Assembly (NCBI RefSeq): GCF_001598795.1
Contig: NZ_BCZP01000014.1
Location: forward strand, 60,001 to 92,000
DNA: 32,000 bases
Source: Delftia acidovorans NBRC 14950
GTDB taxonomy: Bacteria; Pseudomonadota; Gammaproteobacteria; Burkholderiales; Burkholderiaceae_C
Direction of reading: 5' to 3'
Shown here: in pieces, positions 1,169 to 18,990 of the stretch
Layout of the letters: the number at the start of each line of letters is the position of its first letter
Position numbering within the stretch: position 1 is the first letter of the stretch
The notes under the pieces: model-generated
What the model was told of the DNA's origin: nothing
The model's database searches: none
Seen by the model: the letters and a program-made list of their open reading frames with translations, nothing else
Translations under genes and position numbers: made by a program

Positions 1169-3133
1169 ATGAAAAAAACAATGGGAGGCGCCGCGCTCCG
1201 CGGCGCATTGGGAGTCATCGCCTGCGGGCTGGCAGGGGTGGGTGCCGTCCGGTCGGAAGTGGTATCCCGGGTCACGGCCCTGCCAGAGTCCGCCACGCGG
1301 GTGAACATGGGTGATGGCGGCCGCGTTCAGGTCACGCCGGCCCAGGTCAAGGACGGTGTTTCATACAACGGCTTCAGCCAGTTCGATGTGGGCAAGGCCG
1401 GGCTCACGTTCCTGAATGAGGGCGTCAAGGCACGGACCATCGTGGCCGAGGTGTTCTCCGCTGCGCCCTCCCATATCACAGGAACCATCGATGTCAATGG
1501 CCCCCGCGCCAATCTGATTTTTGCGAATCAGAACGGCATCCGCGTCAATGGCGGCAGCTTTGTCAATTTCGGCAGCGTTGCGCTGACCACGGGCGCCGTG
1601 ACGCTGCGCGATCAATTGCAGCCCTCGGGTTATGTCCAGCGGCTGGTGGATGTCCATACCAAGCAGGGCGAGATCGTGATTGGCGAGCAAGGGGTGTCAG
1701 GCAATCTGATCCGTCTGGAGATGATCGCCAAAAGCATTGCCCTGCAGGGTGCCGTCACCAACGAGTTCTCATCATCAAGCGCCCTGGTCCGCATGGTGGC
1801 CGGGGAATCCACGGCCCAGTTCGATACGGCGGCGTCGCCAACGGACAACTTGACGCCATGGGTCTACTACGAGGGAGGGAAGGCGCGCAGCACCGCATTG
1901 GCGGTGGACCTGAATGCGGATTCCAAGGTCACCTCCGGGCGTATCGAGATTCTGGTGACCGACCAGGGCGCCGGTGTGCGCAACCAGGGGCAGATGGTGG
2001 CCTCGGCCGGGGATTTCCGGCTGACCAGCACGGGACAGCTGGAGCAGATCGGCGGCAAGGTGCAGGCCCAGGGGCAGGTGGACATACGCTCCCGGGATAT
2101 CGCGCTGGGTTCGCGCGGCGACGAGACCAGCCTGCTGGCGGCCGGCAGCCGTGTCCGCCTCGAGGCCGAAGGGGCCATCCGCAACCTGGGCGGCGAGATC
2201 TCCGGCCAGCAAGGCGTGGGCGAGGCAGAGGATGCCCATGCCGTCGTGCTCAAGGCCGGTGGCGGCATAGAGCACAGGACGCCCGTGGGGGCCGCGAAAA
2301 CCGCGCTGATCTTCGGCAAGGAAGGCTCCGTGCTGCTGGACAGCGGGCAGGGCGTGGATTCCATCAACGCACGCATCGTATCCAACAGCGATCTGGTCAT
2401 TCGGGGAGCTGCGGATGTGCGCAACGAAAGCGTGCACATCGCCGGTGCCGGCCTGGAAGATTGGGCATCGCACAGCGTCTTCAAGCGCAGGAAAGGCTAC
2501 AGCGTGGACATGGGCGAGCTGGCCGATCCTGCCAACCAGGCCTACTGGGTGGCGCAAGGCAATGTGCAGGTCACGGCGCGCAACTTCTCCAACCTGGGCG
2601 GCCATGTGTTCTCCAACCAGGGCGGCATCAAGATAGAGGCGCAAGAGAGCGTCGTGACCAAGGCGCACAGCATTGGCGGATTCGAATACCGGCAAAGCTG
2701 CTTCCTGTTCGTCTGCAGGCGCACAGCCTCCTCCAACGAGGCGCTGGTGGGCGGGCAGATCATGGGCGCCGAATCGGTCGATATACGTGCTGGCGGGAAG
2801 ATCCTCAACGATGCCGGCCAGGTCTACGCAGGCAAGGGCATGACCCTGGAGGCTCCCGAGATCATCGCGCGAGGGCGCCCCGTGCATACCGTCATCCTGC
2901 GCGACAAGGGCCTCAAGGCCCTGTTCGGCGACACCTGGGCCAGGATCTATGCCACGGACCAGGGCGGCAGCTACACCGTCCAGCAAGGACGGCTGGTTCT
3001 CAAGGGGCTGGCATACCAGGATGGCGGGGTGTTGCAAGCCTCCGAAGGCGTGGACGGCGCCATCGAGGTGATTCGCAAGCCTTCCCGAGATGCGGTGCGC
3101 ATCGAGGACCACCTCGGCATCTTCTGGTGGTGA
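1169..3133 (+). CDS. Short TPS-domain exoprotein (filamentous-haemagglutinin N-terminal domain protein, 654 aa); a second TpsA-type cargo.
   Basis: The N-terminus MKKTMGGAALRGALGVIACGLAGVGA looks like a signal peptide. A TPS-like core follows: DGVSYNGFSQFDVGKAGLTFLNEGVKARTIVAEVFSAAPSHITGTIDVNGPRANLIFANQNGIRVNGG, where ANQNGI corresponds to the NPNGI motif; no NPNL loop is seen. The remainder is beta-helix-like G/A/V-rich repeats. The stop lies 5 nt before the tpsB ATG. Confidence 0.8.
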   Translation: MKKTMGGAALRGALGVIACGLAGVGAVRSEVVSRVTALPESATRVNMGDGGRVQVTPAQVKDGVSYNGFSQFDVGKAGLTFLNEGVKARTIVAEVFSAAPSHITGTIDVNGPRANLIFANQNGIRVNGGSFVNFGSVALTTGAVTLRDQLQPSGYVQRLVDVHTKQGEIVIGEQGVSGNLIRLEMIAKSIALQGAVTNEFSSSSALVRMVAGESTAQFDTAASPTDNLTPWVYYEGGKARSTALAVDLNADSKVTSGRIEILVTDQGAGVRNQGQMVASAGDFRLTSTGQLEQIGGKVQAQGQVDIRSRDIALGSRGDETSLLAAGSRVRLEAEGAIRNLGGEISGQQGVGEAEDAHAVVLKAGGGIEHRTPVGAAKTALIFGKEGSVLLDSGQGVDSINARIVSNSDLVIRGAADVRNESVHIAGAGLEDWASHSVFKRRKGYSVDMGELADPANQAYWVAQGNVQVTARNFSNLGGHVFSNQGGIKIEAQESVVTKAHSIGGFEYRQSCFLFVCRRTASSNEALVGGQIMGAESVDIRAGGKILNDAGQVYAGKGMTLEAPEIIARGRPVHTVILRDKGLKALFGDTWARIYATDQGGSYTVQQGRLVLKGLAYQDGGVLQASEGVDGAIEVIRKPSRDAVRIEDHLGIFWW

Positions 3134-3138
3134 ACCGC

Positions 3139-4836
3139 ATGAGCCACTGGATCTCCGCCGCGGGCATCTGCGCGCTGGCCCTCAGCCCGATGCTCGTCCA
3201 TGCACAGTCCGTGTCTGCGCGCGACCCCAACGACCAGATCATCCGCGAGCAGCAGGAAAAACTGCGCGAGGAAATGCTGCGCCGCTCCGCACCCGCCAGC
3301 ATTGAATTCGAGCAACCCGCTGCCGCAGCCGCAGGCATGGAAGACCGATTCCCCGAAGGCCTGCAGCCCCAGGGACCGGCCTTTCCCATTCATACCATCA
3401 GGCAAGACGGCATGGCGTTGCTGCCGGAGGCTGTCTTTGCCAGGGTCACCGCGCCCTTTGTCGGCCGCTCGATCGGGGTCGAACACATCAACGTGCTGCT
3501 GGAGCGGGTCAACCGGGCCCTGATCGCTGCGGGCTACACCACCTCGCGTGCCTACGTGGGCAACCAGAGCCTGCAGGAGGGCGTGCTGTCCCTCACCATC
3601 GTGCCGGGCCGCATCGAGCAATTGCTGTTCAACGGCACCCCCGTCGGTCTCGGCGACGATCAGGCGCTGGGCGTGCATCTGGCCCTTGCCATGAAGCAGG
3701 GCGACGTGCTGCGCCTGCGCGACATCGAGCAGTCGGTGGACCAGTTCAACCGCCTCAGGCGCAACAACGTGCAGGTGCAGATCCGCCCGGGCACGCAGCC
3801 GGGCGGCTCCATCGTCGAGTTCGTCAACCAGGCGGGCCAGGCCGCGCGCTACAACGTCTCGCTGGACAACCAGGGCGCGGCCGCCACCGGCCGCCTTCGC
3901 GTGCAGCTGGGCCTGGATGCCGGCAATGTGCTGGGCCTGATGGAGTCGCTGGGCGCCGGCCTGACCACCAGCACGGAAACCAACGCCCTGTATGGCACCT
4001 TCTCCGTGCCGCTGGGCTACGCCACGCTGTCGGCCATGGCTTCCGTGTCGGAATACCAGAACCTCATTGGCGACACCGCCCTGGTCCACGGCACATCGAA
4101 GACCTACACGCTGTCGCTGAGCCGCCTGCTGCAGCGCGACCAGAACAGCAAGACGGCCATGGACCTGAGCTTCTCGCACCGCAAGTCCGAGCGTTCCGTC
4201 AACAACATCTCGCTCAGCCCGCAGACCCAGGCCGTGCTGCGCCTGGGCATCAACCGCCTCACGCGCTTTCAAGCCGGACAGGGGCTGGGCCAGTGGACGG
4301 TGGATGCGGGCATCTCGCGCGGCATGCCCTGGCTGGACACCAACCGCGACCCGGCCGACCTGCCCCGGGAGGCCGCCCGCTACCGGTTCACCAAGCTGGA
4401 GCTGTCGGCATCGGTCGAGCGGCCGTTGGGCAGCCTCCTGACCTGGCGCTCGCGTGCGTTGGGCCAATGGAGCCGGCATCCGTTGTACTCGTCCGAGCAG
4501 ATCTTCGCCGGAGGCGTGGGCAGCGTGCGCGGATTTCCCGAATCGGCCGTTGGCGGCGACAAGGGCATGGTCTGGCGCAATGAATGGGCGTTGCAGCGGC
4601 CGCCCCAGATCCTGGGCGGGCAGATCCGCTACGAGCCTTACCTGTTTGTGGATGCGGCGCGGCTGTCCACCGTTGCAGACAGCCGCTCGCATGCCCTGGC
4701 CAGCGCGGGAGGCGGGCTGCGCATCGCCTTCGCGGGCGGCTTCGCCGAGCTGATCGCGGGCAAGCCGTTGCGCACACCCAGTGAAATGCCCAAGCCAGGC
4801 TGGCGTGTCAATGCCAGCCTGGCCTACCAGTTCTAG
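3139..4836 (+). CDS. cdiB: TpsB / CdiB outer-membrane two-partner-secretion transporter (ShlB/FhaC/HecB family), 565 aa.
   Basis: The true start is ATG 3139, in frame within track ORF 1858..4836. Signal peptide MSHWISAAGICALALSPMLVHAQS. POTRA-like segment FPIHTIRQDG...GYTTSRAYVGNQSLQEGVLSLTIVPGRIEQLLFNG. Conserved loop-6 motif GSVRGF. Barrel terminus ...NASLAYQF ending in an aromatic residue. Confidence 0.9.
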   Translation: MSHWISAAGICALALSPMLVHAQSVSARDPNDQIIREQQEKLREEMLRRSAPASIEFEQPAAAAAGMEDRFPEGLQPQGPAFPIHTIRQDGMALLPEAVFARVTAPFVGRSIGVEHINVLLERVNRALIAAGYTTSRAYVGNQSLQEGVLSLTIVPGRIEQLLFNGTPVGLGDDQALGVHLALAMKQGDVLRLRDIEQSVDQFNRLRRNNVQVQIRPGTQPGGSIVEFVNQAGQAARYNVSLDNQGAAATGRLRVQLGLDAGNVLGLMESLGAGLTTSTETNALYGTFSVPLGYATLSAMASVSEYQNLIGDTALVHGTSKTYTLSLSRLLQRDQNSKTAMDLSFSHRKSERSVNNISLSPQTQAVLRLGINRLTRFQAGQGLGQWTVDAGISRGMPWLDTNRDPADLPREAARYRFTKLELSASVERPLGSLLTWRSRALGQWSRHPLYSSEQIFAGGVGSVRGFPESAVGGDKGMVWRNEWALQRPPQILGGQIRYEPYLFVDAARLSTVADSRSHALASAGGGLRIAFAGGFAELIAGKPLRTPSEMPKPGWRVNASLAYQF

Positions 4837-4905: not shown

Positions 4906-7900
4906 ATGAAGAGGGAGCCCAGCATGCATGCACCGACCATGAGCCAGCAAAACCAACAGTCCTCCCCTGTGCCCGAGGAATCGAGAACCGCGCACCGCGC
5001 CCCTCGTTGGGCCCGGCGCACGGCGGCGTTCATGGCCGCTGTTTTCTGGTTGACTCAACTGCAACTGGTCATGGTTGGTACCGCTCAGGCCCAGCCGCAG
5101 CCGCCGGCCGGGCCAATCGCGGGCCCATTCGGCGGACCCATTGCCGACCCGCGCGCGCCGATGGCCTTCCAGCCCGGCATCCAGTCGCTGCCGGGTGGCG
5201 GTGCCCTGGTCAACATCACGGCGCCCAATGCGGCCGGGACCTCGCTCAACCAGTACGAACGCTTCGATGTGCCCACGTCCGGAGTCGTCCTCAACAACAG
5301 CCTCATCGGTGGCACCCCGCTGCTGGGCGGCACGGCAACGGCCAATCCGAACCTGTCCGGCGGACGCACGGCCAACACCATCGTCAACGAGGTCACCGTC
5401 ACCGGAACACCCGGCCAGATGCGGGGCACGGTGGAGGTTTTCGGCGCGCCCGCCACCGTCATCATCGCCAACCCCAACGGCATCACCTGCGATGGTTGCG
5501 GCGTGGTCAACACGCCCCGGCTCACCCTGAGCACGGGCCGGCCCACCTGGCTGGATGCCAACGGACAGGGCAGCACGTTCCAGGACGCGAAAAAGCAGGG
5601 CTTCGACGTGAACGGCGGCCGCATCGACGTGCGCGGCACCGGCATCGAGGGCACCGTGGGCCAGCTCGACCTGATCGGCGAGATGCTGAGCATCGACGCT
5701 CCCCTGCGCGCCCACTACCTGAACCAGGACATCTCCAGCATCAACCTGACGGCAGGCAAGACGCCCGCCATGCCGGGCTCCGCGCGTGCCGCTTCTGAAT
5801 CCCCGCAGTCCCCGCAGACCCCGGCTCCAGCGCAGTCGGGCCGGGCCCTGGCCATCGATGCCACGGCCCTCGGGGCCATGACCGCAGGCCAGATCCGTGT
5901 CATCTCCACCGATGCCGGCATGGGCGTCAACCTGCAGGGCCCGCTTCTGGCCTACCAGCGCGACGTGGAGATCCAGAGCGCTGGCCGCGTGAGCACGGGT
6001 TCCCTGGCTTCGGCACGGGACATCCGCATCGACAGCGATGGCTATGTCAGCGTTGCTGGAGAAGTCTCTGCGGGCAAGCAACTGCAGGTCAGCGGCCGCG
6101 ATGGCATGCAGTTCAACGGACCCGTTCAGGCGCAGGGCGACATCCGGCTGCAAAGCGCGCAGGGCGGCATCGCCGTGAGCGGCGATCTCGTGACCGCCGG
6201 CAGCCTGCAGGCGCGTGCGGGTGGCGACCTGCAGATGGGTTCTGGCGCAAGCACCGTGCAGGTTGCGGGCGCCACCACACTGGGTGGCAAAAACGTCCAC
6301 CAGACCGGCAAGCTGCTGGTGGGTGGCGACCTGGCCATCGACGCGGGCGAAGGTGCGTCCCTGGGCGGCGTCACCGCAGTCGCGGGCAGCCTGGACATGC
6401 GGGCCGGCCAAGGTGCGTTGCTGTCGGGGCAGTTGCAGGTCAACCGCAGCGCCAAGGTTTCGGCCGACACCATCGACGTCACGGGACGCAGCGTCGTTGG
6501 CGAGAACTTCCAGCTCGACGGTGTTCGATCGGTTGGCCTCATCGGCAGTGCCCAGGTGGGCCAGTCGCTGAGCATGAAGGCGGGCACCGTGGGCATCAAC
6601 GGTGACATCTCGGCCGGCGAAACCAATGTGGACGCCAGCCGGGTCGATCTCGGCAGCATGGAAAAAGGCCTGTCCATCGGCGGCGACCTGAACCTGCGCG
6701 TCGGCGACTCCCTGCATGCGCGTGGCGATGTCAGTGTCACGGGCAGCGCGAATCTTTCCAGCGGGGGCGACGCCCGGTTCGACGGTGCCATCACTGCCGG
6801 GCGCGACCTGGGCCTGAGCGCGGGTGGCGACCTGACCATGGCCGGCCCGGTCACATCGGGCGGCAAGGCCAGCTTCAATGCCGCAGGCAACCTCACGGCG
6901 CACGGCGACATCCTTGCGGGCGGCGGCATCACGGGTAAGGCGGGCGGGGACATCCGCCTGGGCGGGCAGGTGGGCTCGGCCGGTTCCCAGCAATGGAGTG
7001 CGGGCGGCGACTTCTCTGCCGACAAGGGCATGGAGGCTGCGGGCCTGTCCGTCGAGGGCCGCAACATCCGCATCGCCGGCGATGTGCTGTCCCAGGGCGC
7101 CGTCAACATGAAGGCAGGCCAGAAGCTCCAGCTGGGAGGCGACTTGCGCTCGGCAGGCAGCACCACCCTGAGCGCCGGCGCCGAAGGCATCACCGCCAAG
7201 TCCATCCTCACCAACGAAGACCTCGACATCCGCAGCCAGGGCAACATCGCCCTGGAGCAGGCGCAGGCCGCGCGCGACGTGCGCCTGGAATCCTCGACGG
7301 GCAGCATTGCAACGGGCAACCTGCTGGCCGGGCGCGATGCCGGCGTGACTGCGGCGGGCAATGTACTCGTCGATGGAACACTGCATGCCGGGCGCGATGC
7401 GCGCATTGCCGCCAAGGGTGATACCACCGTGCGCGGCGATGCCTTCGCCGGGCGCGACGTGGCGCTGGCTGGCAGCTCCATCAGCCTCGACAAGGGCCTG
7501 CAGGCCGGTGGAGGCATGCAACTGGAGGCCGGGGATGGCGGCATCGCCAGCCGGGGCCAGCTGGTTGCCAACCGGGGCATCACCGCCCTGTCCGCAGGCC
7601 AGATCGACGTCCAGGGGCCGGTGCTCTCCGGAGAGAACCTGCAACTGCGCGCAGGCCGTGACATCACGGTGGCGGGCGACATCGCGGCCATGGGCACCAT
7701 GGACATCCGGTCGGCACAGGCCCTCAAGGCCGAACGCCTGCAGGCCGGCGCCGATCTTGACGTTGCGGCTGCATCCGTCCACACCCGCAGCGTGCTGGCG
7801 CAGGGCCAGGCCACGCTGCGCGCCGACGATGCCCTGCGCATCCAGGGCGACCTGATGGGCGCCGGCATCGACGCCACGGCGCGCACGGGTGCCATCTCCG

Positions 7901-10900
7901 TCACCGGCACGGTGGCTACGCCAGGGTCGCTGAGCCTCAAGGCCGGCACCGATGCCGAGGCCGGCAAGGTGGTGGCCGGCACGGCCGACGGCCAGGCTGC
8001 CGTGATCGACGCGGGCGGCAACATCCGCCTGCAAAGCCTGGAGACCGGCGGCGCCTACCAGGCCCGCGCGGGAGGCAGCCACGAGGTGGCAGGCGCGGCC
8101 ACCGTCCAGGGACCGGCCGACATCGCCGCTGGCGCGGACATCACCGTGGGTGCAGATGCAGCCTTCGGCCAGGGCCTGGCCGCGAATGCCGGCGGACGCA
8201 TTGCCGTGGCCGGCGACACCCTGGTGCTGGGCGATGCACGCCTGCAAAGCGGAGCGGGCCAAAGCTACGGCGAGACTTCGGGCGGCAAGGCGGGCGGGCA
8301 GATGCGCGTCACCGGCAGGCTCGATGCCAGCGCCGGCCAGGGCTTCGCCGTGGGCAAGGAGCTGCGCGTCAACGACGGCATGGACATCGAGGCCAAGGCC
8401 GGTGCCATCGACGTGGGCGGCGGCCTCGCCACGCTGGGCGATGCGCGCCTGCAGGGCTCGGACGGCGTGCGCGTGGGCGGCGACCTGCAACTGCGCAAGG
8501 GTGAGCTTGCCAGCTCCGGCGGCGCCATCGCCATTGCAGGCAAGGTCTCTGCCGAGCAGGACCTGGGACTGAAGTCCCGGGGTGACATTGCCATTGGCGG
8601 TGCCACCGTCGCGCAAGGCCGGCTCACCGCCCGCAGCGAGGCTGGCAGCATCGGCTTTGGCGGCAACCTCGACGTGGCCGGCGACTTCGACGCCCATGCG
8701 GCGCAGAACCTGAGCTTTGAAGGCAACAGCCTCTTCCTGGGCGAGGCCCGGCTCAAGGCGGACAACGGTGCCATCCGCAACCGGGGCGACATGACCTTCG
8801 CTAAGGCGGTGGACATCGACACCGGCGGCGATCTCTCCAACGAAGGCCTGATCCAGTCGCGGCAGGACATCTCCATCCGCGCCCGCAATATCGACAGCAA
8901 CCTGGCCCGCGCTGGCGGCATCGTCACACCGGGCCAACTCACCGTCCAGGCCGGGGGCGCCACGCGCCTGGGCAGCCAGGGCAAATTCAGCGCCGGGCAG
9001 GACATGGCGCTGCAGGCGGCCGGCGGCACCAGCAGCCAGGGCACCCTCCAGGCGGGTGGCAAGCTCACCCACACCGGCTCCCTGTCGAGCAGCGGCAGCG
9101 TCGTGGCCGACGACATCACCATCGACGGCGCGCTGGGCAACCAGGGCGGCAGCGTCTATGCCCAGGGCAGCCTGGGCGTCTCGGGCAGCACCAGCAACAG
9201 CGGCAACATTGCCGCCAGCACCATCACCATGGCCGCCTTGGACAACAGCGGCCAGATCGGTGCGCAGGGCATCTCCCTGGGCGCCACCGGCAACTCGGGC
9301 AGCATCTCCGGCTCCAGCGTGGGCATAGATGGCAGCCTGAGCAACAGCGGCAGCATAGGCGCCAGCGGCTCGCTCGGCGTCTATGGCGGCTCCATCTCCA
9401 ACAGCGGCTCCCTGGCGGGCGGCGACGTCACCCTCAGCGGCAGCAGCATAGGCAACGATGGACAGATCCAGTCCTCGGGCTCCCTGAGCATCTCGGGCGG
9501 CAGCTTCGACAACGGGCTGACCGAATCGCGCAGCTGTGTCTCGGCCAGCGGCTGCGGCGCGGGCTCCGCCCCTGAAGACTGGCGCTACAGCCAGACCCCG
9601 GGCACCGTGCATGCGGGCGGTGCGCTCACCGTCAACGTCGGCAGCATGACCAACAAGGGCGTGGTCAGCGCAGGCAGCAGCGTCAATATCCAGGGCAGCC
9701 TCAATAACACGCGCAGCGTCAACGACCCCTACACTTCCGCAGGCGCCAGTGGTGGCGCCAGCACCGGCATCATCTCGGCCGGTGGCGACCTCACCATCTC
9801 GGGCCCCTCCGTGCAGAACGCGGGCGGGCAGATGCAGGCAGGCGGCGCCGTCAACATCACATCGGCCGGTGCCTTCAGCAATGGCGCCCCGGCCGAAGGG
9901 GTGACCGGCCAGATCCAGGGCAGCAGCGTCACCATCAACGCCGCCAGCATCGACAACCAGGGCACGCTGCTGGCCAAGAGCGGCGATGCGAAGCTCACCG
10001 CCAGCTCCGGCGGCATTGCCAACACCGGCACGGTGGCCGCCAGCGGCGGCCTGCAACTGCAGGCCAGCGGCGCGGTCAGCAACGGCGACGGTGCCAACCT
10101 GCTGGGCCAGGACATCCGCATCAAGGGCTCGGGTTTCAGCAACCAGGGTACGGTCTATGGCCAGGGCGGCGCGCCCGGCGAGATCGACATCAACACCACG
10201 GGTGGCTTCAGCAACAGCGGTGGCACACTTGTGGCGGGCGGCAAGCTCAACATCCAGTCCGGCGGCTACAGCAACAGCGGCGGCACCGTGGGCAGCCTGG
10301 GCGACGCCACCCTCACCATGGCAGGCGCCTATGGAGCCACCGGCAACGAACTGCTGGCCCTGGGCCACCTTCAGCTCAACGTGGGCGGCATCAACGTGGG
10401 CGCCTCGGAAAGCTGGTCCTATGGCGGCAGCTCCGTCGCCTGGACCGGCACCCTGCGCAACCAGGGCAGCGTCGCCATCGCCGGCAGTGCCAGCGGTTCC
10501 ATCCACAACGAAGCCACGGGCACGCGCAGGGGCAGCGGCGAACCCGACGTGCGCGACGGCACCTACGAGGTGCCCGACTACCCGGCCGCGCTGGCCGACC
10601 TCAAGGAAGTGCGCGTCATCGGCTACACCGACGTGGCGCAGCGCGCGCAGCTGTACATCGGCGGCGGCTTCGACGGCTCCCTGGTCAATGAGGCCTCGGA
10701 CGCCAGCGTGGGTGGCGGCAGCATCGAGCAGCGCAAGAAGAACCAGACCATCACCTGGGAGGGCAAGAACGCCGACGGGGACATCGTCACCGTCGAAGGC
10801 CTGGCCCGCAGCGTGCCGCGCCTGAACACCGGCAGCGGCAGCTCCACCATCACTCTGGTCGGGCCCGATACCGGCACCATCGTCGGCGATGCCATCACCA

Positions 10901-13900
10901 TCAATGGCGGCACCATCACCGTACGGCCCGGCATTGATCCCGCCACGGGCCTGCCCCTGGTCGTGGAAGCCCGCAACCGCGAGGTCAAGCCCGGCGAGGT
11001 GGCCAAGGGCCCCGACGGACAGGCCGTCAAGGGCGACGTCAAGACCGGCGATGCCGGCAAGGCCGACGCGCCCAGGGAATTCAAGGTCCTGGGCGGCGAC
11101 CCCGGCAGCATCGGCGCCGGCGACACCAAGGGCCAGGGCAGCGACATCAAGGGCCCGGGCGACGAAGGCCTGCCGCCCCGGACCTCCAGGCCGCTGGACC
11201 TCTCGCGCCCTGAACTGGCCACGCCCGAAGGCGGCGTGGCCGCCCTGCTGGGCGGCGGCAAGAGCGTGGCCTGGCCCGACTGGAAGCAGATGCAGATCGT
11301 GCCCGGCGGCATCAGCGCCAACGACCTGGAACTCAACCTCAACGGCCAGTTCATCAACCGGGGCCAGCTCGAAGTCACCAACAACCTGGCCATACGCGCC
11401 GCCGAAGGCATAGACAACTTCGGCGCCAGCATTCGCGCGGGCGGCTACACCAGCCTCAGCGGCGGCAGCCTCGACAACCGGGACGGCAAGATAGAGACCG
11501 GCACCCTGCTGACCTCCCTCAAGGGCGACATCGACAACAGCCGCGGCAGCATCGTCGCGCATGACGGCGGCTATCTGCAGGCCAGCGGCAATATCGCCGC
11601 CACCGATGGCCGCTTCGTCAGCGACGCGGGCAAGATCGTGCTGGACGCGGGCGGCAACATCGACCTGGTCGCCAGCAAGGTCGAGGGCAAGAAGGGCGCG
11701 GGCCTGTATGCCGACGGCGACATCCGCCTGGGCGCCACCGCCAAGGCCGAAAGCACGCACAAGAAAGAGGACCAGATCCTCGTCACCCAGCACTACGACG
11801 CGGACAACAACCTCACCAACCCAGAGATCCGCATCAAGATCGGCGAAACCCAGCGGCGCACCGACACCCTGACCCACACCGGCACCACCATCGACGGTGG
11901 CGAAGGCGGCGTCACGCTGCGGGCCAAGGGCGACGTGGTGGCCCTGGGCTCGCACATCAAGGCCGGTGAGGACGTTCTGGTGCAAGGCGCCAGCGTGCGC
12001 GTCGAAGCCCTGGTGGACAAGTCCAGCAGCCTGGAGGAAGAGCACCGCAAGAACTACGACCATGCGCTGTTCCAGCGCAGCGAATCCCTGTCGGGCGGAG
12101 AAATCGAGGCAGGCCGCAACCTGAGCATCGTGGCGAACGGCAAGGCCGACGCAGGCAAGGGCGACATCACCCTCAAGGGCGCCACCGTCACCGCCAAGGG
12201 CGACGCCAGCCTCATCGCCAGCCGCGACGTCAACCTGCAGGACATGCAGACCGAGCACGGCCGCTTCGAGGAAACCTACAGCAAGAAAAGCGGCTTCCTG
12301 AGCAAGAAGAGCACGCACACCGTGGAGGAAGGCGCCAGCAGCCTCAGCGAAGGCAGCGTGCTCAGCGCCAACAACATCTACCTGCAGGCCGGGCGCGACA
12401 TCAGTGTGACCGGCTCGCACGTGGTGGGCCAGGGCGACGTGGGCCTGGTGGCCGGGCGCGACGTGCAACTGCTGGCGGGCCAGGACAGCGCCGCCGCCAC
12501 CAGCCACAGCCAGACCAAGAAATCGGGCCTGTTCAGCGGCGGCGGCTTCGGCATCACGCTGGGTTCCAAGTCCGTCACCATCGACCGCAGCAACGAAAGC
12601 GTGCGCGCGGCAGGCTCCAGCGTGCAGGCGCAGGGCGGCAACGCCTCCATCGTGGCCGGCAACCAGTACCGCCAGACGGGCTCGGCCGTGCTGGCTCAGG
12701 GCGATGTGAACATCGTCGGCAAGAGCGTTGAGATCAACGAGGCGCGCGAGCTCGAGCGCGACAAGTTCGAGATGCGGGCCAAACAGAGCGGGCTGAGCGT
12801 CAGCATCAGCAACCCCGTGGTCAATGTCGTGCAAGGCGGCGAGACGGTCGCCCGCATTGCCGGGGCGACCGGCAAGACCAGCGATGCTCGCATGCAGGCC
12901 CTGGGTGCGGCCGCTGCCGGCATGGCGGCCTATGAAACCTATGGCAAGGCCAGCCAGCTCATCGCAGACCCCAGCAGTGCCACCAGCGTAGGCATCAGCC
13001 TCAGCCTGGGCAAAAGCTCCAGCCGCAGCACCAGCGAATACCAGGTCAACAGCGCCGTAGGCTCCCTGGTCAAGGCCGACGGCAACGTCAGCATCACGGC
13101 CACCCAGGGTGACGTCCACGTGCGCGGCAGCAGCGTGGAAGCCGGCAAGGACGTACGCCTGGCTGCGGACAAGGGCAACATCGTCCTGGAAGCGGCAGAA
13201 AACCGCTTTGCCGAGCAAAACAGCCAAAGCAGCAGCTCGGCCAGCGTGGGCGTGGCCTTCACCCTGGGCAGCAAGAACGGCTTCAGCGTCAATGTGGGGC
13301 TCAGCCAGGGCAAGGGCAGTGGCAGCGGTGAAAGCCTCAGCCACACCAACACCCACATCAAGGCAGGCGGCACGGCCAGCGTGCAAAGCGGCGGCGACAC
13401 CACGCTCAAGGGCGCCACCATCGTGGCCGACACGGTAAAGGCCGACATAGGCGGCAACCTCGCCATCGAAAGCCTGCAGGACAAGAGCACCTACAACGAG
13501 AAAAGCAGCAGCGCAGGCCTCAACGTCAGCCTGTGCGTGCCTCCCCTGTGCTACGGCCCCTCCAGCGTGGGCGGCAGCGCCGGGCGCACGCGCATCGACA
13601 GCGACTACCAGAGCGTGGTCGAGCAAAGCGGCATCCGCGCTGGCGACGGTGGCTTTGACGTCAAGGTCAAGGGCGACACCACGCTCAAGGGCGGCGCCAT
13701 CACCAGCACCCAGGTGGCGATGGACGACGGCAAGAACCGCTTTGAAACCGGCGGCAAGCTGACCACCAGCGACATTGAAAACCATGCGGAATATGACGCC
13801 AGCGGCTGGAGCGCAGGCGGCAGCGTGGGCTTCCAGGCAGGTGACCAGAGCACAGCCAAGACGGAAGAACAAAAAAAGGCCGCACTCAACACAGGCAAGG

Positions 13901-15381
13901 GCCTGACGGGCGGCAGTGCCGGCGTGGGTAGCGACAGCGGCAATGCCAGCAGCACCACCAAGGCCGGCATCAGCGGCGTGGCGGGTGACAGCGGCGCGCG
14001 CACGGGGGACAAGGAGACAGGCCTCAAGCCCATCTTCGACAAGGACAAGGTGCGCGAGAACGTCAATGCGCAGATCGAGATCACGCGGGAGTTTGGTTCA
14101 CGTGCGAGCAAGGCGGTGGGGGACTTTGCCGACAGCAAGCTCAAGGAGGCGATGGCCAACGGTGATGAGGCGGAAATCGAGAAATGGAAAGAAGGTGGGG
14201 CTGGCCGAGTCGCGCTGCACGCATTGGTTGGTGCGGCGGGCGGGGGATTGGCAGGAGCTGCCGGCGCGGGCCTGAGCCAGGTGGCTGTCGCGCATCTGGA
14301 CGAAACCTTGAAGGAGTTGGGCGTTGACGAAGGTGCGCGAAACACCCTGGTCGCCGTGGCTGGAACGGCCGTGGGGGCCGTGGCCGGTGGAGCAGCAGGG
14401 GCAGCGGCTTCGACCAATGCCACGCTGAACAACTTCCTCAACCACAAGGAGCTCACGGAACGGGCTAAGAGTGAGAGCGCCTGCCAGAAGGGCGACAAGG
14501 CGGCGTGCGGCGAGGTAAGCAAGCTGGACGCGCGTTCTGCTAAACGCAATGAAGATATCCGTAAAGGTTTGGCTCCAGCGACGGTGGATCAGAACCTGGA
14601 GATTCAAGAAGACCTTGGCACAGTGGTGACAGAGCTTGCCAAGTACAAGGATCAGCTATACCAGCAATTGGGGGCCACTGCAGATCCTCAGCGCAGAGCT
14701 GACCTGATGGGGCAGATCAACGCAGCAGACAACAATATCAAACAGTTGACTGTGCTGGGTCAGGATAATTTGCTGTACTTGTATGGTAAGACCAATGATG
14801 AGCAGTATTGGAGTGCCTATAAGCAATTGCAGGCGGCATCTAGTGGCAATGATGTGGCGGATGTGATAATGACCGGGGCTGCTTTTATTGGAAAGAATAG
14901 AAGGCCCGTTGCAAAAAATGGTGCGGAGAAATATGAGGATTTATCATCTTCGACAGACGGGCCTAAAGTAGAAGTGAAAGGCTCTGGGGAGACGAAAATA
15001 GCGCCTCCTGAAAATTCCTATGCTGTATATCCTCGAGGCCCTGGAGCTTCTGAGGGGCCAGTTCCTAAAGACTATGTAACGGTATCTCGATGGGTTTCAA
15101 AAGAAGAGGCAGCTCTTTGGATGCAAAACCAAGGCACAGCCATTCCTGCAAATGTCCCTAGAAACGGGACGCCTCAGGTGTATGTTACAGAGGGAGGCGC
15201 ACCATATCCTCCTGGTGCTAAAGGGGAAATCCGTATTGATTTTGCCGTGCCAAATGCGATGCTGCGTAAAGGGAATTCATCGAACAATTTTCAAATTCTT
15301 CAGCCTTCGTCAAGTACGCCTATTTATAATGTAAAGATCCATGTTCCTAATGGAATGGAAATTCCGACACTTAGAAAGTGA
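4906..15381 (+). CDS. cdiA: CdiA-type giant TpsA exoprotein / contact-dependent inhibition toxin (3491 aa from ATG 4906).
   Basis: The TPS domain carries both canonical motifs (..[23 protein letters not shown].. and ..[31 protein letters not shown]). More than 1500 aa of ~20-residue FHA-type repeats follow. An FHA-2-like part is present ([29 protein letters not shown]). A Gly/Ala-rich pretoxin region ends in [16 protein letters not shown]. The C-terminus is variable and lower in GC. The start is ambiguous: in-frame ATG 4924 has AGGGAG 6 nt upstream and may be the real start. Confidence 0.92.
   Translation: [3491 protein letters not shown]
14425..15378 (+). other. CdiA pretoxin boundary (LNN at 14425-14433, equivalent to VENN) plus the CdiA-CT toxin region (aa 3177-3491).
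   Basis: The motif ...[21 protein letters not shown]... matches the layout of PT-VENN domains (Gly/Ala-rich, then xxNNxLxxxE). Codon usage visibly shifts from about 14540 onward. Hand count of 14761-14820 gives 24/60 G+C, against 47/60 for 8401-8460 in the repeat region. Confidence 0.75.
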
Positions 15382-15671
15382 TGCAAGAAATGAAGGTCTC
15401 TAAAGATTTTGGTATCATCTTAAGAAAAGATGCCATTGCACTTAATTCTATAGATATTGATTTAATACTGAAGGAATTTAATTTTGAAAAATTATTTGAT
15501 GAAGATGAGTTTTTAATATCTCTTGGCCCTTTCTTCGGTTCGGAGAATTCCGAAGAATGCATAGTGTTTTTGAAAGAATTAGGTCTTTCATATATTGATG
15601 ATTTCTTTGTTTTGGAAGGGTATTTCCCCGATTGGTGTGATGTCTTTGTGAAGAAATCTGAGAATTTCTGA
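15381..15671 (+). CDS. cdiI: Candidate cognate immunity protein (CdiI), 96 aa, acidic.
   Basis: The ATG at 15381 shares its A with the cdiA TGA stop (TGATG). The track ORF starts 3 nt earlier, at GTG 15378. It is a small AT-rich ORF immediately after a polymorphic toxin C-terminus: MQEMKVSKDFGIILRKDAIALNSIDIDLILKEFNFEKLFDEDEFLISLGPFF...GYFPDWCDVFVKKSENF. I recognise no family; the call rests on position. Confidence 0.6.
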   Translation: MQEMKVSKDFGIILRKDAIALNSIDIDLILKEFNFEKLFDEDEFLISLGPFFGSENSEECIVFLKELGLSYIDDFFVLEGYFPDWCDVFVKKSENF

Positions 15672-15684
15672 TTAACAAGGTCCG

Positions 15685-15817
15685 ATGCCACAGCACAGCA
15701 CAGCACAGCACAGCACAGCACAGCACAGCACAGCACAGCACAGCACAGCACAGCACAGCACAGCACAGCACAGCACAGCACAGCACAGCCTGGGGACGCC
15801 ACATTGCATCTTCGCTC
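15685..15817 (+). pseudogene. 5' fragment of a lipoprotein-gene paralog, interrupted by the microsatellite.
   Basis: ATGCCACAG (15685-15693) and CACAGCC....GACGCCACATTGCATCT.CGCTC (15784-15817) match 16359-16396 of the intact lipoprotein gene (ATGCCACAGCCCAAAGACGCCACATTGCATCTCCGCTC). The match includes a 17-nt perfect run. Confidence 0.5.
15689..15788. repeat. Perfect pentanucleotide microsatellite (CACAG)x20.
   Basis: Counted directly: 100 nt, 20 uninterrupted CACAG units, from 15689 to 15788. It produces the artefactual CAVLC-repeat ORFs on the minus strand. Confidence 0.98.
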
Positions 15818-15853
15818 GCATTAAATGGTTATAGAATTTCTATTTGGTGAATT

Positions 15854-16243
15854 ATGAAGCTATGTATTAAATTTGAGAAAAATGGTTGGTTTGAGTATTT
15901 TATTAAAAATAAAAATATTCCTTGCATTTGTAAAATAAAAGGCAATGATTTTTCTGTGGAATTTTTTTCTCCATTGCCTGAGGCAGTAGGTACTGTGAAA
16001 GATTTCTCTAAAGAGGAAATAAATCTTAGAGCTCCATCATATGGAGGTGGGGTACATACACATAATTCTTTTGCGGAGATTAGTTTGATAGAGGTATCGC
16101 AAGATATTTATGAAATATCTGATCTTAGATTTTTTTATCAAACATCTGGATGGCACCAAATATTGGAGAATTTTTCTTTGGTGGAGGTTGTTGATGAGGA
16201 TTTGCCAGATTGGGTCAAAGATTTGGATAAAGGCAAGATTTGA
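15854..16243 (+). CDS. Small AT-rich hypothetical protein, paralog A (129 aa); orphan immunity-like.
   Basis: A clear paralog of 16997..17398. Shared blocks: I.FE.N.F.E..IKNK.IPC.C..KG..F.VEF..PL, GG..TH..F.EISL, DL.FF...GW..I.EN, PDW...LDK. It is preceded by a ~10-codon AT-rich coding remnant ending in TGA 3 nt before the ATG. Confidence 0.7.
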   Translation: MKLCIKFEKNGWFEYFIKNKNIPCICKIKGNDFSVEFFSPLPEAVGTVKDFSKEEINLRAPSYGGGVHTHNSFAEISLIEVSQDIYEISDLRFFYQTSGWHQILENFSLVEVVDEDLPDWVKDLDKGKI

Positions 16244-16277
16244 TTTAATTTGCTTTGAGTAAATTCGAATTAATCTC

Positions 16278-16808
16278 ATGAAAGACGAACGTTCTTTTTT
16301 GATCCTATGTCTTTCCGTTGCGCTGGCCGGTTGCGCCATCGAACCTCGCCGCAACTACATGCCACAGCCCAAAGACGCCACATTGCATCTCCGCTCCACA
16401 GGCATGCCCATGTCGGCAGGTTTTTCCATCAGCTCCGCCAGCACGGCGTGCGAAGGCTTTGAATTCGCAGGATCTGTTCGCGATGGAGGCGAGAGCGTGC
16501 TGCTGCCCTGGATTGCAGCGTTGAGCAACAAGCTCAGCGGCGTTCCAACTGTGCGAGAGGCTGCGGTGCCCGCAGATGCGCCAGTGCAGGTCAAAGGCTT
16601 TTCCTCCTGGCAAGACCAGTACAGCAGAGGTTCCTGTGGGCCGGTAACCAAGCGGTTCACTCCCACTGCTGATGGCGTCTACCGTGTGGATTTTGTCTGG
16701 GCTGGCGTGCGCAAGTGCGGGTTGCGTATTGTGGATATCAGCAGGCCTGATGAGCCAAGGGAAGTACCTGGCACGCCGCTGATCTGTCCTCGTCCGCCGG
16801 GGCTGTAG
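16278..16808 (+). CDS. Putative lipoprotein (176 aa), unknown function.
   Basis: Signal peptide plus lipobox: MKDERSFLILCLSVALAGC. From ~16317 onward the gene is much more GC-rich than the AT-rich modules on either side. Partial copies lie at 15685-15817 and possibly 18525-18632. Confidence 0.75.
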   Translation: MKDERSFLILCLSVALAGCAIEPRRNYMPQPKDATLHLRSTGMPMSAGFSISSASTACEGFEFAGSVRDGGESVLLPWIAALSNKLSGVPTVREAAVPADAPVQVKGFSSWQDQYSRGSCGPVTKRFTPTADGVYRVDFVWAGVRKCGLRIVDISRPDEPREVPGTPLICPRPPGL

Positions 16809-16996
16809 TTCATACGGTGTTCATAAGCCTTCTTCATTCCATTGTTGTAAATGGTGTGACTACTAAAGGTGCCAGGCAAAAGGTGGTGGAAATACTGGAT
16901 CAGTTGTCTTCTGGATGGCAATATTTTAGCCAGATTTGTAGCTCTAATAAAATATTGTCTGGTGATTTTATTGCTGCTAGAAAAGAGTGGAGTTAA
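16809..16996 (+). pseudogene. 5'-truncated coding remnant (about 62 codons) abutting paralog B; possible orphan toxin C-terminal tail.
   Basis: Hand translation of the frame ending at TAA 16994-16996 gives VHTVFISLLHSIVVNGVTTKGARQKVVEILDQLSSGWQYFSQICSSNKILSGDFIAARKEWS*. There is no ATG. The AT-rich sequence begins exactly after the lipoprotein stop. The TAA is directly followed by ATG 16997. Confidence 0.35.
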
Positions 16997-17398
16997 ATGA
17001 TTTTAAATATTGAATTTGAGGAAAATTTCTTCATGGAAAGTATTATTAAGAATAAATTTATTCCATGTGTTTGTAGGGTGAAAGGGCTTAATTTTACCGT
17101 GGAATTCTCCCGGCCGTTGAAAATGATGGCTACAGGATATATCCCGAATTTTAATCTGCAAGATATATGCGATAGATATTCTGCGGCTGCAGGTGGAGAG
17201 TATACTCACTATTGTTTTGGTGAGATTAGTTTGAATTATTTATCTGATAGTTCATTTGAGGTAATTGATCTGAAATTCTTCGATGAAATCTATGGCTGGA
17301 TAGATATTATTGAGAATTCGGTGTTGGCTGAGAAATTTAAAGAAGAGGATAGATATTATCCTGATTGGGCTAGAGAGCTGGACAAAGATAGGAAATGA
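16997..17398 (+). CDS. Small AT-rich hypothetical protein, paralog B (133 aa); orphan immunity-like.
   Basis: Paralog of 15854..16243 (roughly half of the first 41 aligned residues are identical by eye). GGAG sits 4 nt upstream of the ATG, and the start abuts the stop of the upstream remnant. Confidence 0.7.
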   Translation: MILNIEFEENFFMESIIKNKFIPCVCRVKGLNFTVEFSRPLKMMATGYIPNFNLQDICDRYSAAAGGEYTHYCFGEISLNYLSDSSFEVIDLKFFDEIYGWIDIIENSVLAEKFKEEDRYYPDWARELDKDRK

Positions 17399-17655
17399 TT
17401 ATTGTGTAAATATTTTGGATCGCAGTAAATACTAAAGAATTTTTTTGATGAAAATTCTCCAGTATTTAATGCAGATCTAGATAAATATTGGATTTGGTGT
17501 GTCAAAGACGTCCAGACCACTTGGCGGTGCGGAGCGATATTTTCCAGTACCAGGGCCATCGTTTGCTAACAGAAGTCATTCTTGGCGGAAGTGGTCGTTA
17601 ATCTGGTAATTGCTGTGTAATAATTTGGATTAAATGATAAATTAATGGAGGGTTT

Positions 17656-18138
17656 ATGTTTTTCTGGAAAATAAAAGATCTCAAGAATGCTTTAATTCAT
17701 CGCGAGCTAACAGAAAAACAGGTATTTATTTATATTCTGATTTTCGTGCTGCTGAGCATTGTTGCGATGGAGATTACTCGCTATCTTCATCCTGATCGAG
17801 TGGGATTTTGGGACTATGTAGACTCTTTTTTGAGTATTTCTATTGTCCTTTGTGGAACTGTTTTTTCTTACCGTGCCAATGGAGGGTCGTCTGGCGTGGA
17901 TTTTTCTGCAAGATTCTTTAGTATCAGCCTTGTGGTAACTCTTAGGCACATGTTTTTTCTGATTCCCATTGCATTGATTTTCTATGCGTATACTACTTAT
18001 TCATACATTAAAGGAATGGGGATAAATCCAGGGCAGGTGGTGATGACAGGAGGGGTTGAGGTTGTTTTGCTTGGAATCTGGTGTATTAATATATACCGGT
18101 CCATTGTCAAAAATATCAGCGACGTGTCTAGAGCTTGA
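17656..18138 (+). CDS. Small integral membrane protein, about 4 TM segments (160 aa).
   Basis: GGAGGG lies upstream of the ATG. Hydrophobic stretches: VFIYILIFVLLSIVAMEI, FLSISIVLCGTVFSY, FFSISLVVTLRHMFFLIPIALIFYAY, VEVVLLGIWCINIY. Composition is AT-rich like the neighbouring orphan ORFs. Confidence 0.65.
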   Translation: MFFWKIKDLKNALIHRELTEKQVFIYILIFVLLSIVAMEITRYLHPDRVGFWDYVDSFLSISIVLCGTVFSYRANGGSSGVDFSARFFSISLVVTLRHMFFLIPIALIFYAYTTYSYIKGMGINPGQVVMTGGVEVVLLGIWCINIYRSIVKNISDVSRA

Positions 18139-18166
18139 AGTGATCTGAAAATGGGAGTATTGATCG

Positions 18167-18472
18167 ATGTTTGATTTAGATATTCTTGTGCCTATCGCTT
18201 TGGGTGTTTTGTATTATTCGTGGTTCCATGGGTTTCATGTAGCTTCGGAATATATGGATATCGTCCACAATTCTTCGGGCTGGAAATGCGTGTTGGTCGG
18301 TGTGATGGCTGGATTATTGCCGGGAGCCATTGTGCTTTGTATTTTTCTCTTGATTAGTTCAAAAGGAGATTCTGGCTTCCTGGCATTTGTAGTGCTCTCA
18401 TGTATCTGGTTTTATTTGAGAGCGGCAATGCTCACGGCCACCAAGAAAAGTAGTGCTTCACCAAACGAGTGA
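18167..18472 (+). CDS. Small integral membrane protein, about 3 TM segments (101 aa).
   Basis: GGGAG lies 9 nt upstream of the ATG. Hydrophobic stretches: ILVPIALGVLYYSWF, CVLVGVMAGLLPGAIVLCIFLLI, FLAFVVLSCIWFYL. It is the last AT-rich ORF before composition returns to high GC. Confidence 0.6.
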   Translation: MFDLDILVPIALGVLYYSWFHGFHVASEYMDIVHNSSGWKCVLVGVMAGLLPGAIVLCIFLLISSKGDSGFLAFVVLSCIWFYLRAAMLTATKKSSASPNE

Positions 18473-18524
18473 CTTGCGTAATGTTGGTGTGGGAGTTCGG
18501 GGAGACTGCATAACGAGCTTCGTT

Positions 18525-18632
18525 TGCTGCGGGCCTGTGTATCTGAGGTTTCAGCCTGAAGCAGGCAGGCGCTACCGCGTGCAGTTCGAGCAGGAGGATC
18601 GGGTCTGCGATGCCCGCTTGCTGGCCGTGACC
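18525..18632 (+). pseudogene. Possible 3' remnant of a lipoprotein paralog.
   Basis: CCGPVYLRFQPEAGRRYRVQFEQEDRVCDARLLAVT aligns by eye with SCGPVTKRFTPTADGVYRVDFVWAGVRKCGLRIVDIS of the 16278..16808 protein. The shared pattern is CGPV..RF.P.A...YRV.F......C..R, about 14 of 36 residues with one gap. No credible N-terminus or start exists upstream. Confidence 0.3.
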
Positions 18633-18990
18633 GCTGCCGGTAGTACCTCCGAGGCGGCCGTGCGCTGGTGTCTCTTACAGCCGGTGGCTGTGTACCGATG
18701 GCTTCATGAGCATCGGAATGAACGAGGTCATCCGCTACCGCTAGTTTGCGCGTTGGTCTCAAGGGCGTTGTCATGCCCTGGCCTAGGTGGGTCGAAAACA
18801 GTGCACACACTTGGTATGAAGTTTGCATGGATACCCGGTCGCTCAGGCGCCGGACGGACGTCCTGCACCGCGTGGCTGCATCTGCGCGAAGTGGTGGTGG
18901 AACGGATGTAAGCTCGCGGCAAGCCTGCGGGCGGGTGCTGCCCCAGGTGAACAAGATCAACGCATTCCACGCACCACAAGGAGACATTTC

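Follow-up and report, generated by a model that had tools for sequence, protein, structure and literature searches.

The 32,000-nucleotide (nt) stretch of Delftia acidovorans NBRC 14950 analysed here (contig NZ_BCZP01000014.1, positions 60,001 to 92,000 of the forward strand), which we call the window and whose positions are counted from its first letter, carries a contact-dependent growth inhibition (CDI) locus and, downstream of it, two related small genes that are the subject of this study: copy A (15854..16243, forward strand, 129 amino acids (aa)) and copy B (16997..17398, forward strand, 133 aa). The genes follow each other in the order of a 654-aa open reading frame (ORF) with a two-partner secretion (TPS) domain, cdiB, cdiA, a 97-aa ORF, the region of A and B, two ORFs for small membrane proteins and a gamma-glutamyltranspeptidase gene; the guanine plus cytosine (GC) content is 68% in the window and falls to 35-42% across 14800-18450. 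A preliminary description of this DNA, made from its letters, had called the two copies clear paralogs, which is borne out by BLASTP, where they align along their whole length with 43% identity (E = 2e-34). The blocks that they share (IPC.C, F.VEF, GG..TH, DL.FF, GW..I.EN, PDW) are conserved columns of a larger family, whose hidden Markov model (HMM) recovered A with E = 6.6e-41 and B with E = 6.8e-40. All family-invariant residues are kept in both proteins, and Shine-Dalgarno-like sequences are kept upstream of both genes. Loci that were compared with the window are denoted below by L numbers and proteins by P numbers.

Directly in front of B lies the 3' stump of a cdiA C-terminal toxin region (CT) of the Peptidase_C39 kind (16835..16996, forward strand, about 52 codons and a TAA, without a start codon), which was recognised by tblastn, HMM and BLASTP. 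The toxin of L001 matched 16835-16987 in tblastn (E = 2.9e-10), a profile of four full-length toxins, from which the window was excluded, matched the stump at model positions 102-148 of 149 (E = 8e-8), and in BLASTP the stump was 62% identical over 50 aa to the C-terminus of the full-length Delftia CdiA of L019 (E = 2e-17), with 51% identity to the toxin C-terminus of L001 and 47% to that of L026. The downstream neighbours of these full-length CdiA proteins are P0002 in L019 (86% identical to B), P0004 in L001 (56% identical to B) and, in L026, a protein 100% identical to A; the homolog search with the 62-aa remnant that had been proposed in the preliminary description has therefore led to the extreme C-terminus of full-length Delftia CdiA, followed each time by a homolog of A and B. 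The agreement extends to the DNA, where 16842-17413 is 84% identical to the L019 junction at which the full-length cdiA-CT is succeeded by P0002. The start-less remnant of about 62 codons described earlier is thus a genuine toxin stump, and its TAA (16994-16996) touches the ATG of B as had been stated, but the toxin-homologous part of the open frame is about 50-52 codons (16835-16993) and not 62, the first ten codons or so being the 3' flank of a lipoprotein gene. The stump retains the regions of the catalytic His (LLHSIVVNG) and Asp (ILDQ); it cannot be active, because the Cys-bearing two-thirds of the domain are missing. It also carries the Shine-Dalgarno sequence of B (GGAG at -8 to -5). 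Its ortholog in L001 has an in-frame TAG, and the codon differences between the window and L001 amount to 5 synonymous and 8 non-synonymous ones, one of the latter being the nonsense change in L001; judged from these differences the stump is clearly decaying.

The situation in front of A is different in kind. The upstream flank (15812..15853, forward strand) is of the type of the B-A intergenic spacer, which measures 57-58 nt in L001 and L019, and what has been left of a toxin/immunity junction is the last 8 nt (15846-15853, GGTGAATT), with a TGA stop 3 nt ahead of the start codon of A and a Shine-Dalgarno-like GGTGA, in accordance with the junction of the full-length loci. Further upstream there is a 5' fragment of the lipoprotein gene (15685..15817, forward strand; ATGCCACAG … codons 27-40), which Tandem Repeats Finder showed to contain an internal expansion, the perfect microsatellite (CACAG)x20.2 (15689-15789), between the resident cdiI and A; 15784-15817 is 85% identical to 16363-16396 of the lipoprotein gene. 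In the near-identical locus L003 there are 3 CACAG units, so with 20 units in the window the tract is hypervariable. The frame ending in LNGYRISIW*, which had been interpreted as a coding remnant of a toxin, crosses the repeat, a 34-nt fragment of the lipoprotein gene out of frame and the spacer-homologous stretch, and it stays open only because of this passage; an in-frame TGA cuts it to 8 codons in L001 and L003. Local alignment of the flank with nine toxin 3' ends and with the end of the cognate toxin of A gave nothing significant over shuffled sequences, the one exception, a marginal hit, being that of the L019 spacer (p about 0.006, uncorrected for three tests). The assignment of this frame to a toxin had accordingly to be abandoned; in substance, the view that the toxin parts were truncated to different extents could be kept, with about 52 codons before B and essentially a stop codon and a ribosome-binding stretch before A.

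The toxins themselves are still encoded elsewhere in the genus. In five other samples (L026-L030) the gene that starts 3 nt behind a full-length C39 CdiA-CT encodes a protein 100% identical to A, and P0002 follows a full-length C39 CdiA-CT in L019-L021, so that one allele of the matching toxins adjoins A and another a B-type gene. The correspondence with L026 is particularly close: 15846-18593 of the window, starting 8 nt before the ATG of A with the TGA included, is 98.7% identical to it, and its layout, cdiA(C39)–A–lipoprotein–stump/B–two membrane ORFs, is that of the window with the toxin attached.

The same association was found outside Delftia. Nine independent contexts of the family were compared, from Delftia, Acidovorax, Massilia, Acinetobacter and metagenomes, and in eight of them the family member stands directly after a Peptidase_C39 toxin domain or a 3' stump thereof, the upstream toxins being mostly CdiA C-termini. 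In D. tsuruhatensis (L001/L002) P0004 begins 7 nt after a full-length CdiA; in Acidovorax (L008/L009) P0006 adjoins an orphan CdiA fragment of 1005 aa that has Fil_haemagg_2, DUF6862 and an intact Peptidase_C39; in a metagenome (L005) and in GCA_041156805.1 (L007) the member overlaps the end of a protein with the same toxin domain at its C-terminus; in another metagenome (L012) the C39 domain is directly upstream; and in the metagenome-assembled genome GCA_051646515.1 (L013) a C39 CdiA is followed by two tandem members. In Massilia (L004) and Acinetobacter (L010/L011) the member is directly preceded by a truncated toxin stump. The idea that the homologs of A and B occur mainly outside toxin loci, which the preliminary description had named as fatal to its interpretation, does not apply.

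The toxin tail had been taken as belonging to no recognised family, and this had to be corrected. The full-length toxins score 29.6-44.4 bits with Pfam Peptidase_C39 (gathering cut-off 22), which places them with the Tox-PLC39, Cpe1 and StbD-CT kind, and their motifs Q…TCGHNSCG, SHFVVVDG and IRDP correspond to the catalytic Cys, His and Asp of papain-like peptidases. ComA, LahT and Cpe1 were out of reach of phmmer and profile searches of PDB that started from the Delftia toxin, therefore the C39 assignment relies on Pfam and on a weak hhalign match. At least three Delftia alleles of the toxin/immunity pair can be distinguished (A-type, B-type and P0004-type), and 75-81% identity among their toxins goes with 44-61% among their immunity proteins, a contrast which is the usual pattern of co-evolving toxin/immunity pairs.

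On these grounds we propose, with a probability of roughly 85%, that A and B are both orphan immunity genes of CDI and belong to one unnamed family, the partners of which are papain-fold Peptidase_C39 toxins at the C-terminus of CdiA. The orphan cdiA-CT/cdiI architecture suggested in the preliminary description is supported by the C39 stump before B, by the downstream position and by the full-length pairs in other strains. Each of the two proteins would bind and neutralise its own C39 toxin allele when this is delivered by a neighbouring Delftia cell, and the strain would be protected from two toxin alleles that it has itself ceased to make. If Cpe1 and StbD-CT are a guide, the partners probably cleave a cytoplasmic target such as GyrB/ParE. 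When 15382-18800 was searched for pretoxin or VENN-like homology with the 3' 1.9 kilobases (626 aa) of cdiA as query, none was detected (best blastn E = 0.23, best tblastn E = 0.39), in agreement with the earlier remark that no VENN-type stretch is present for re-grafting the modules onto cdiA; lacking it, they cannot be re-grafted, and as the catalytic Cys region is absent too, the stumps cannot serve as toxins again. The role of the modules would be one of immunity only and not of a toxin reserve.

Several observations weigh against this proposal. One of the nine contexts, a metagenome locus (L006), has no toxin neighbour, and the Delftia toxin resembles Cpe1 only remotely (48 columns aligned by hhalign, E = 3e-4). 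A promoter and terminator scan of 15300-18600 gave no signal above background, which leaves transcription of the orphans unproven. In L003, copy A (8854-9244) has an additional T in a T7 run and copy B (10001-10438) has a frameshifted C-terminus, which suggests that the genes can be dispensable, unless these are homopolymer sequencing errors.

The frameshifts of both genes in L003, together with the lack of a detected dedicated promoter and the clear decay of the toxin stump, would also suit the view that A and B are decaying relics without function, hitch-hiking beside cdiA. We regard this as improbable, since both ORFs are intact in the window, L001, L019-L021, L024 and L026, and the invariant residues and Shine-Dalgarno-like sequences have been preserved. 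The A protein is 100% conserved over at least 10 contigs with synonymous differences only (3 synonymous and 0 non-synonymous codon differences between the window and L001), and in B 13 synonymous changes stand against 9 non-synonymous ones in the same comparison.

It is still less probable that the two proteins are subunits of one immunity function, or that both are needed against one toxin. Tandems do recur, as toxin–B-like–A in L019-L021, as two members behind the C39 CdiA of L013 and side by side in Acinetobacter L010, but a single member follows the toxin in L001 (P0004), L005, L007, L008, L012 and L026-L030 (A alone); there is no position-specific orthology, A being 38-39% identical to either gene of L013, and in the window another gene separates A from B. 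The classical proposal for orphan CDI modules, that they are a reservoir of toxins kept to recombine onto cdiA and so to switch the deployed toxin, has a genuine counterpart in the Acidovorax fragment of L008, but it can hardly hold for A and B, where the toxin parts have gone (52 codons without the Cys region before B, 8 nt before A), no longer intact toxin ORF stands upstream of either gene and the 3' 1.9 kilobases of cdiA have no homology in 15382-18800.

That the immunity-like family was not one to be recognised has been confirmed by searches. Neither A nor B nor any of 61 family members was assigned to a family by Pfam and NCBIfam, and the family profile had no match at E <= 0.3 among PDB sequences, although 9L5U_C and 8SSM_C were in the library. 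Imm8 (PF15586), to which the label 'Immunity protein 8' of one UniRef entry pointed, was rejected: P0168, P0021, P0016 and P0019 gave no Pfam match to it at E <= 10, and a genuine Imm8 gene of L001 reached 108.8 bits. Word-indexed protein search was insensitive for this family, with 4 matches (the Delftia relatives) and 9 matches, therefore an exhaustive HMMER search of 1.84 billion representatives was needed; in it 109 clusters reached E <= 1e-3 and 72 reached E <= 1e-10, the first count being a lower bound of the family size counted in clusters at 50% identity. The members are typically about 120 aa long, nearly all between 110 and 160 aa, and they were found in Delftia, Acidovorax, Herbaspirillum, Pseudoduganella, Massilia, Mitsuaria, Pseudomonas and Acinetobacter, where all named ones are called 'hypothetical protein'; a scan of species-representative genomes gave one locus, in Massilia. 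The family is thus undescribed and unnamed, and at least 109 clusters would receive a concrete proposed function, namely immunity against CDI-delivered C39 cysteine-peptidase toxins.

An AlphaFold2 model of B from the 61-sequence alignment reached a mean predicted local distance difference test score (pLDDT) of 91.6, and it is mainly of beta structure, with about eight strands and three short helices in 133 aa; it supersedes an earlier run on a 6-sequence alignment (pLDDT 59). Foldseek comparison of the model with PDB, in a library of entries released up to 8 April 2026 in which the presence of 9L5U and 8SSM was unchecked, had its best E at 0.44 and a template modelling (TM) score of at most 0.29; the 50 best matches included no immunity protein, and the same model found no relative in BFVD.

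As a separate observation, tandem pairs whose two members share 42-46% identity occur repeatedly in unrelated loci (L013 2402-3197, L010 5001-5820), and the Acinetobacter pair of L010 is part of an island of immunity genes in which SUKH and Imm45 genes are found as well. Such stacking seems to be typical for this family.

Orphan cdiA-CT/cdiI modules downstream of cdiBAI have been described for Escherichia coli EC93 and EC869 and for many other proteobacteria, and the classical ones keep part of the conserved pretoxin on the VENN side and usually an intact toxin domain. Like these, A and B lie 3' of a cdiB-cdiA-cdiI cluster as low-GC cassettes in a 68%-GC genome; an intact immunity gene follows a start-less toxin fragment, fully in the case of B and vestigially (8 nt) in that of A; and the pair ends a full-length cdiA elsewhere, for A in L026-L030, for the B type in L019-L021 and for the third allele in L001/L002. 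Unlike the classical orphans, the modules of the window are without pretoxin homology, their toxin domains are destroyed and the cassettes are punctuated by a repeated, genus-specific lipoprotein gene.

Concerning the toxin, the nearest described relatives are of three kinds. Cpe1, with its immunity protein Cpi1 (PDB 9L5U), is a papain-like cysteine protease effector of the type VI secretion system (T6SS) of E. coli ATCC 11775 and cleaves GyrB and ParE (PMC12136450). The same paper tabulates 85 CdiA-linked toxins of the papain-like cysteine protease class, betaproteobacterial ones included, each with a small divergent putative immunity gene downstream (PMC12136450), and its table S1 has no Delftia entries. 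StbD-CT is a CdiA-like C39 peptidase toxin of Citrobacter rodentium, paired with the immunity protein StbI (bioRxiv 10.64898/2026.05.07.723447). The cleavage of GyrB/ParE at a Gly-Gly motif is known for Cpe1 and StbD-CT (PMC12136450; bioRxiv 10.64898/2026.05.07.723447), and the C39 toxin class has recently been shown to inactivate gyrase and topoisomerase IV. Tox-PLC39 was catalogued as a C39/ComA-like papain-fold C-terminal toxin domain of Bacteroidetes, Chloroflexi and Firmicutes, delivered by the type II secretion system, T6SS or the PVC system, with no immunity family dedicated to it in the catalogue (Zhang et al. 2012, PMC3482391).

The Delftia CTs share with Cpe1 the membership of Pfam Peptidase_C39 (27.5 bits for Cpe1, 29.6-44.4 for Delftia, cut-off 22) and the Cys/His/Asp triad, and with StbD-CT–StbI the arrangement of a CdiA-borne C39 toxin and a small immunity protein encoded immediately downstream. 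With Tox-PLC39 they have in common the C39 papain-fold peptidase as a C-terminal toxin domain; unlike the entries of that catalogue they are delivered by the type V secretion system as CDI toxins, occur in Betaproteobacteria and have a dedicated immunity family. It is on the side of immunity that the systems diverge. Cpi1 is chain 9L5U_C in PDB, with the related chain 8SSM_C, named CdiI, and the A/B family is unrelated to it (hhalign of the 61-sequence profile against Cpi1, probability 0.1%); 8SSM_C did not match the profile either. StbI, compared by its description, has a five-stranded curved sheet and two helices, unlike the approximately eight strands and three helices of the B model. Cpi1 and StbI were therefore ruled out as the family of A and B by the hhalign probability and by the lack of a PDB profile match. 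The C39 class would thus pair with at least two unrelated immunity families, of which the one described here has a confidently predicted fold without a solved relative. The toxin family is already known, and what is new is the immunity family, itself of a known kind; one may see in the arrangement ordinary left-over immunity that leaves the understanding of CDI unchanged, and at the same time a strain that would hold immunity to two toxin alleles circulating in the genus, while deploying a third, unrelated toxin, would be a clean case of immunity hoarding.

The gene between A and the stump (16278..16808, forward strand) is a high-GC gene inside the AT-rich cassette island and encodes a lipoprotein of 176 aa, whose signal peptide contains a Cys (LAGC). 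Its homologs were found in Delftia only, apart from one metagenome match at 48%. Three copies are present in L001 (10464-10997, 12318-12851 and 13923-14453; 93-97% nt identity) and one in L014-L018; the copies have a variable 5' end, corresponding to the signal peptide, and a conserved remainder of about 500 base pairs. Synonymous changes exceed non-synonymous ones, and at the level of sequence the gene appears to be under purifying selection. The elements are ordered B–A–lipoprotein in L001 and L019, and A–lipoprotein–stump–B in the window, which would be explained most simply by recombination among the lipoprotein copies; the gene is a probable homology block or substrate for cassette rearrangements. 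Its product might conceivably be an accessory protein of CDI resembling BcpO.

We would reconstruct the history of the locus as follows. The order A–lipoprotein–stump–B would have been inherited from a layout which other strains have kept whole, cdiA(C39)–A–lipoprotein–stump–B. In the ancestry of the window strain the A-type toxin was presumably replaced by an unrelated CT with its 97-aa immunity gene, the left junction of the replacement lying within the lipoprotein-gene fragment that now bears the microsatellite. The older modules would have been pushed downstream with loss of their toxin parts, B keeping a dead 52-codon stump that still supplies its ribosome-binding site, and A the 8-nt junction alone. 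The sequence behind B (17399..17496, forward strand) is weakly similar to the B-A spacer and roughly the first 40 nt of a gene resembling A (L001 13442-13538, 65% identical over 101 nt; E = 8e-5, from a search of very small size), and tentatively it might be what decay has left of an earlier B-A tandem.

A more far-reaching version of the proposal would hold that A and B represent a new fold class of C39 toxin inhibitors with a mechanism unlike that of Cpi1 and StbI, that the lipoprotein gene, and not pretoxin homology, serves Delftia as the recombination scaffold by which immunity cassettes are duplicated, permuted and exchanged, and that (CACAG)n modulates read-through into the orphans. Taken as a whole we consider this version rather doubtful.

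The resident locus lies in front of A and B. Its cdiB gene, which ends at 4836, has ShlB/POTRA domains, and the resident cdiA (4906..15381, forward strand, 3491 aa) has a TPS domain and, in its C-terminal 460 aa, a DUF6862 pretoxin. Up to about 14894 it is shared with other Delftia cdiA genes, 14400-14894 being 93% identical to the cdiA of L001 and L019, and past 14894 the divergence starts with a strain-specific C-terminal toxin. This toxin is not a C39 peptidase; TreTu_C matched the C-terminus of the resident CdiA below threshold (22.2 bits, cut-off 27). The 97-aa ORF (15378..15671, forward strand) overlaps the cdiA stop and from its position is presumed to be the cognate cdiI of the resident toxin; it is unrelated to A and B, is annotated as a 96-aa gene in L003 and L024 and had no family match in Pfam and NCBIfam scans. 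Region 14895-15671, with the resident CdiA C-terminus and the 97-aa gene, is a further uncharacterised toxin/immunity pair. The whole of 14400-18900 is 100% identical to CP066006.1 of GCA_016127415.1, and 14400-15704 is 99.7% identical to D. acidovorans CP022656.1, which is L003. An Rfam scan of 15300-18700 found nothing.

Two ORFs behind B (17656-18138, 160 aa, and 18167-18472, 101 aa) are AT-rich, hydrophobic and similar to membrane proteins, with sub-threshold matches to membrane families and no family match; they are conserved downstream of B in L003, L024 and L026 and may represent additional orphan immunity genes, directed at toxins that act on membranes. Finally, besides the main cdiA, the 654-aa ORF upstream of cdiB (1169-3133) has a TPS secretion domain, and it may be a truncated or a second gene of the TpsA type.

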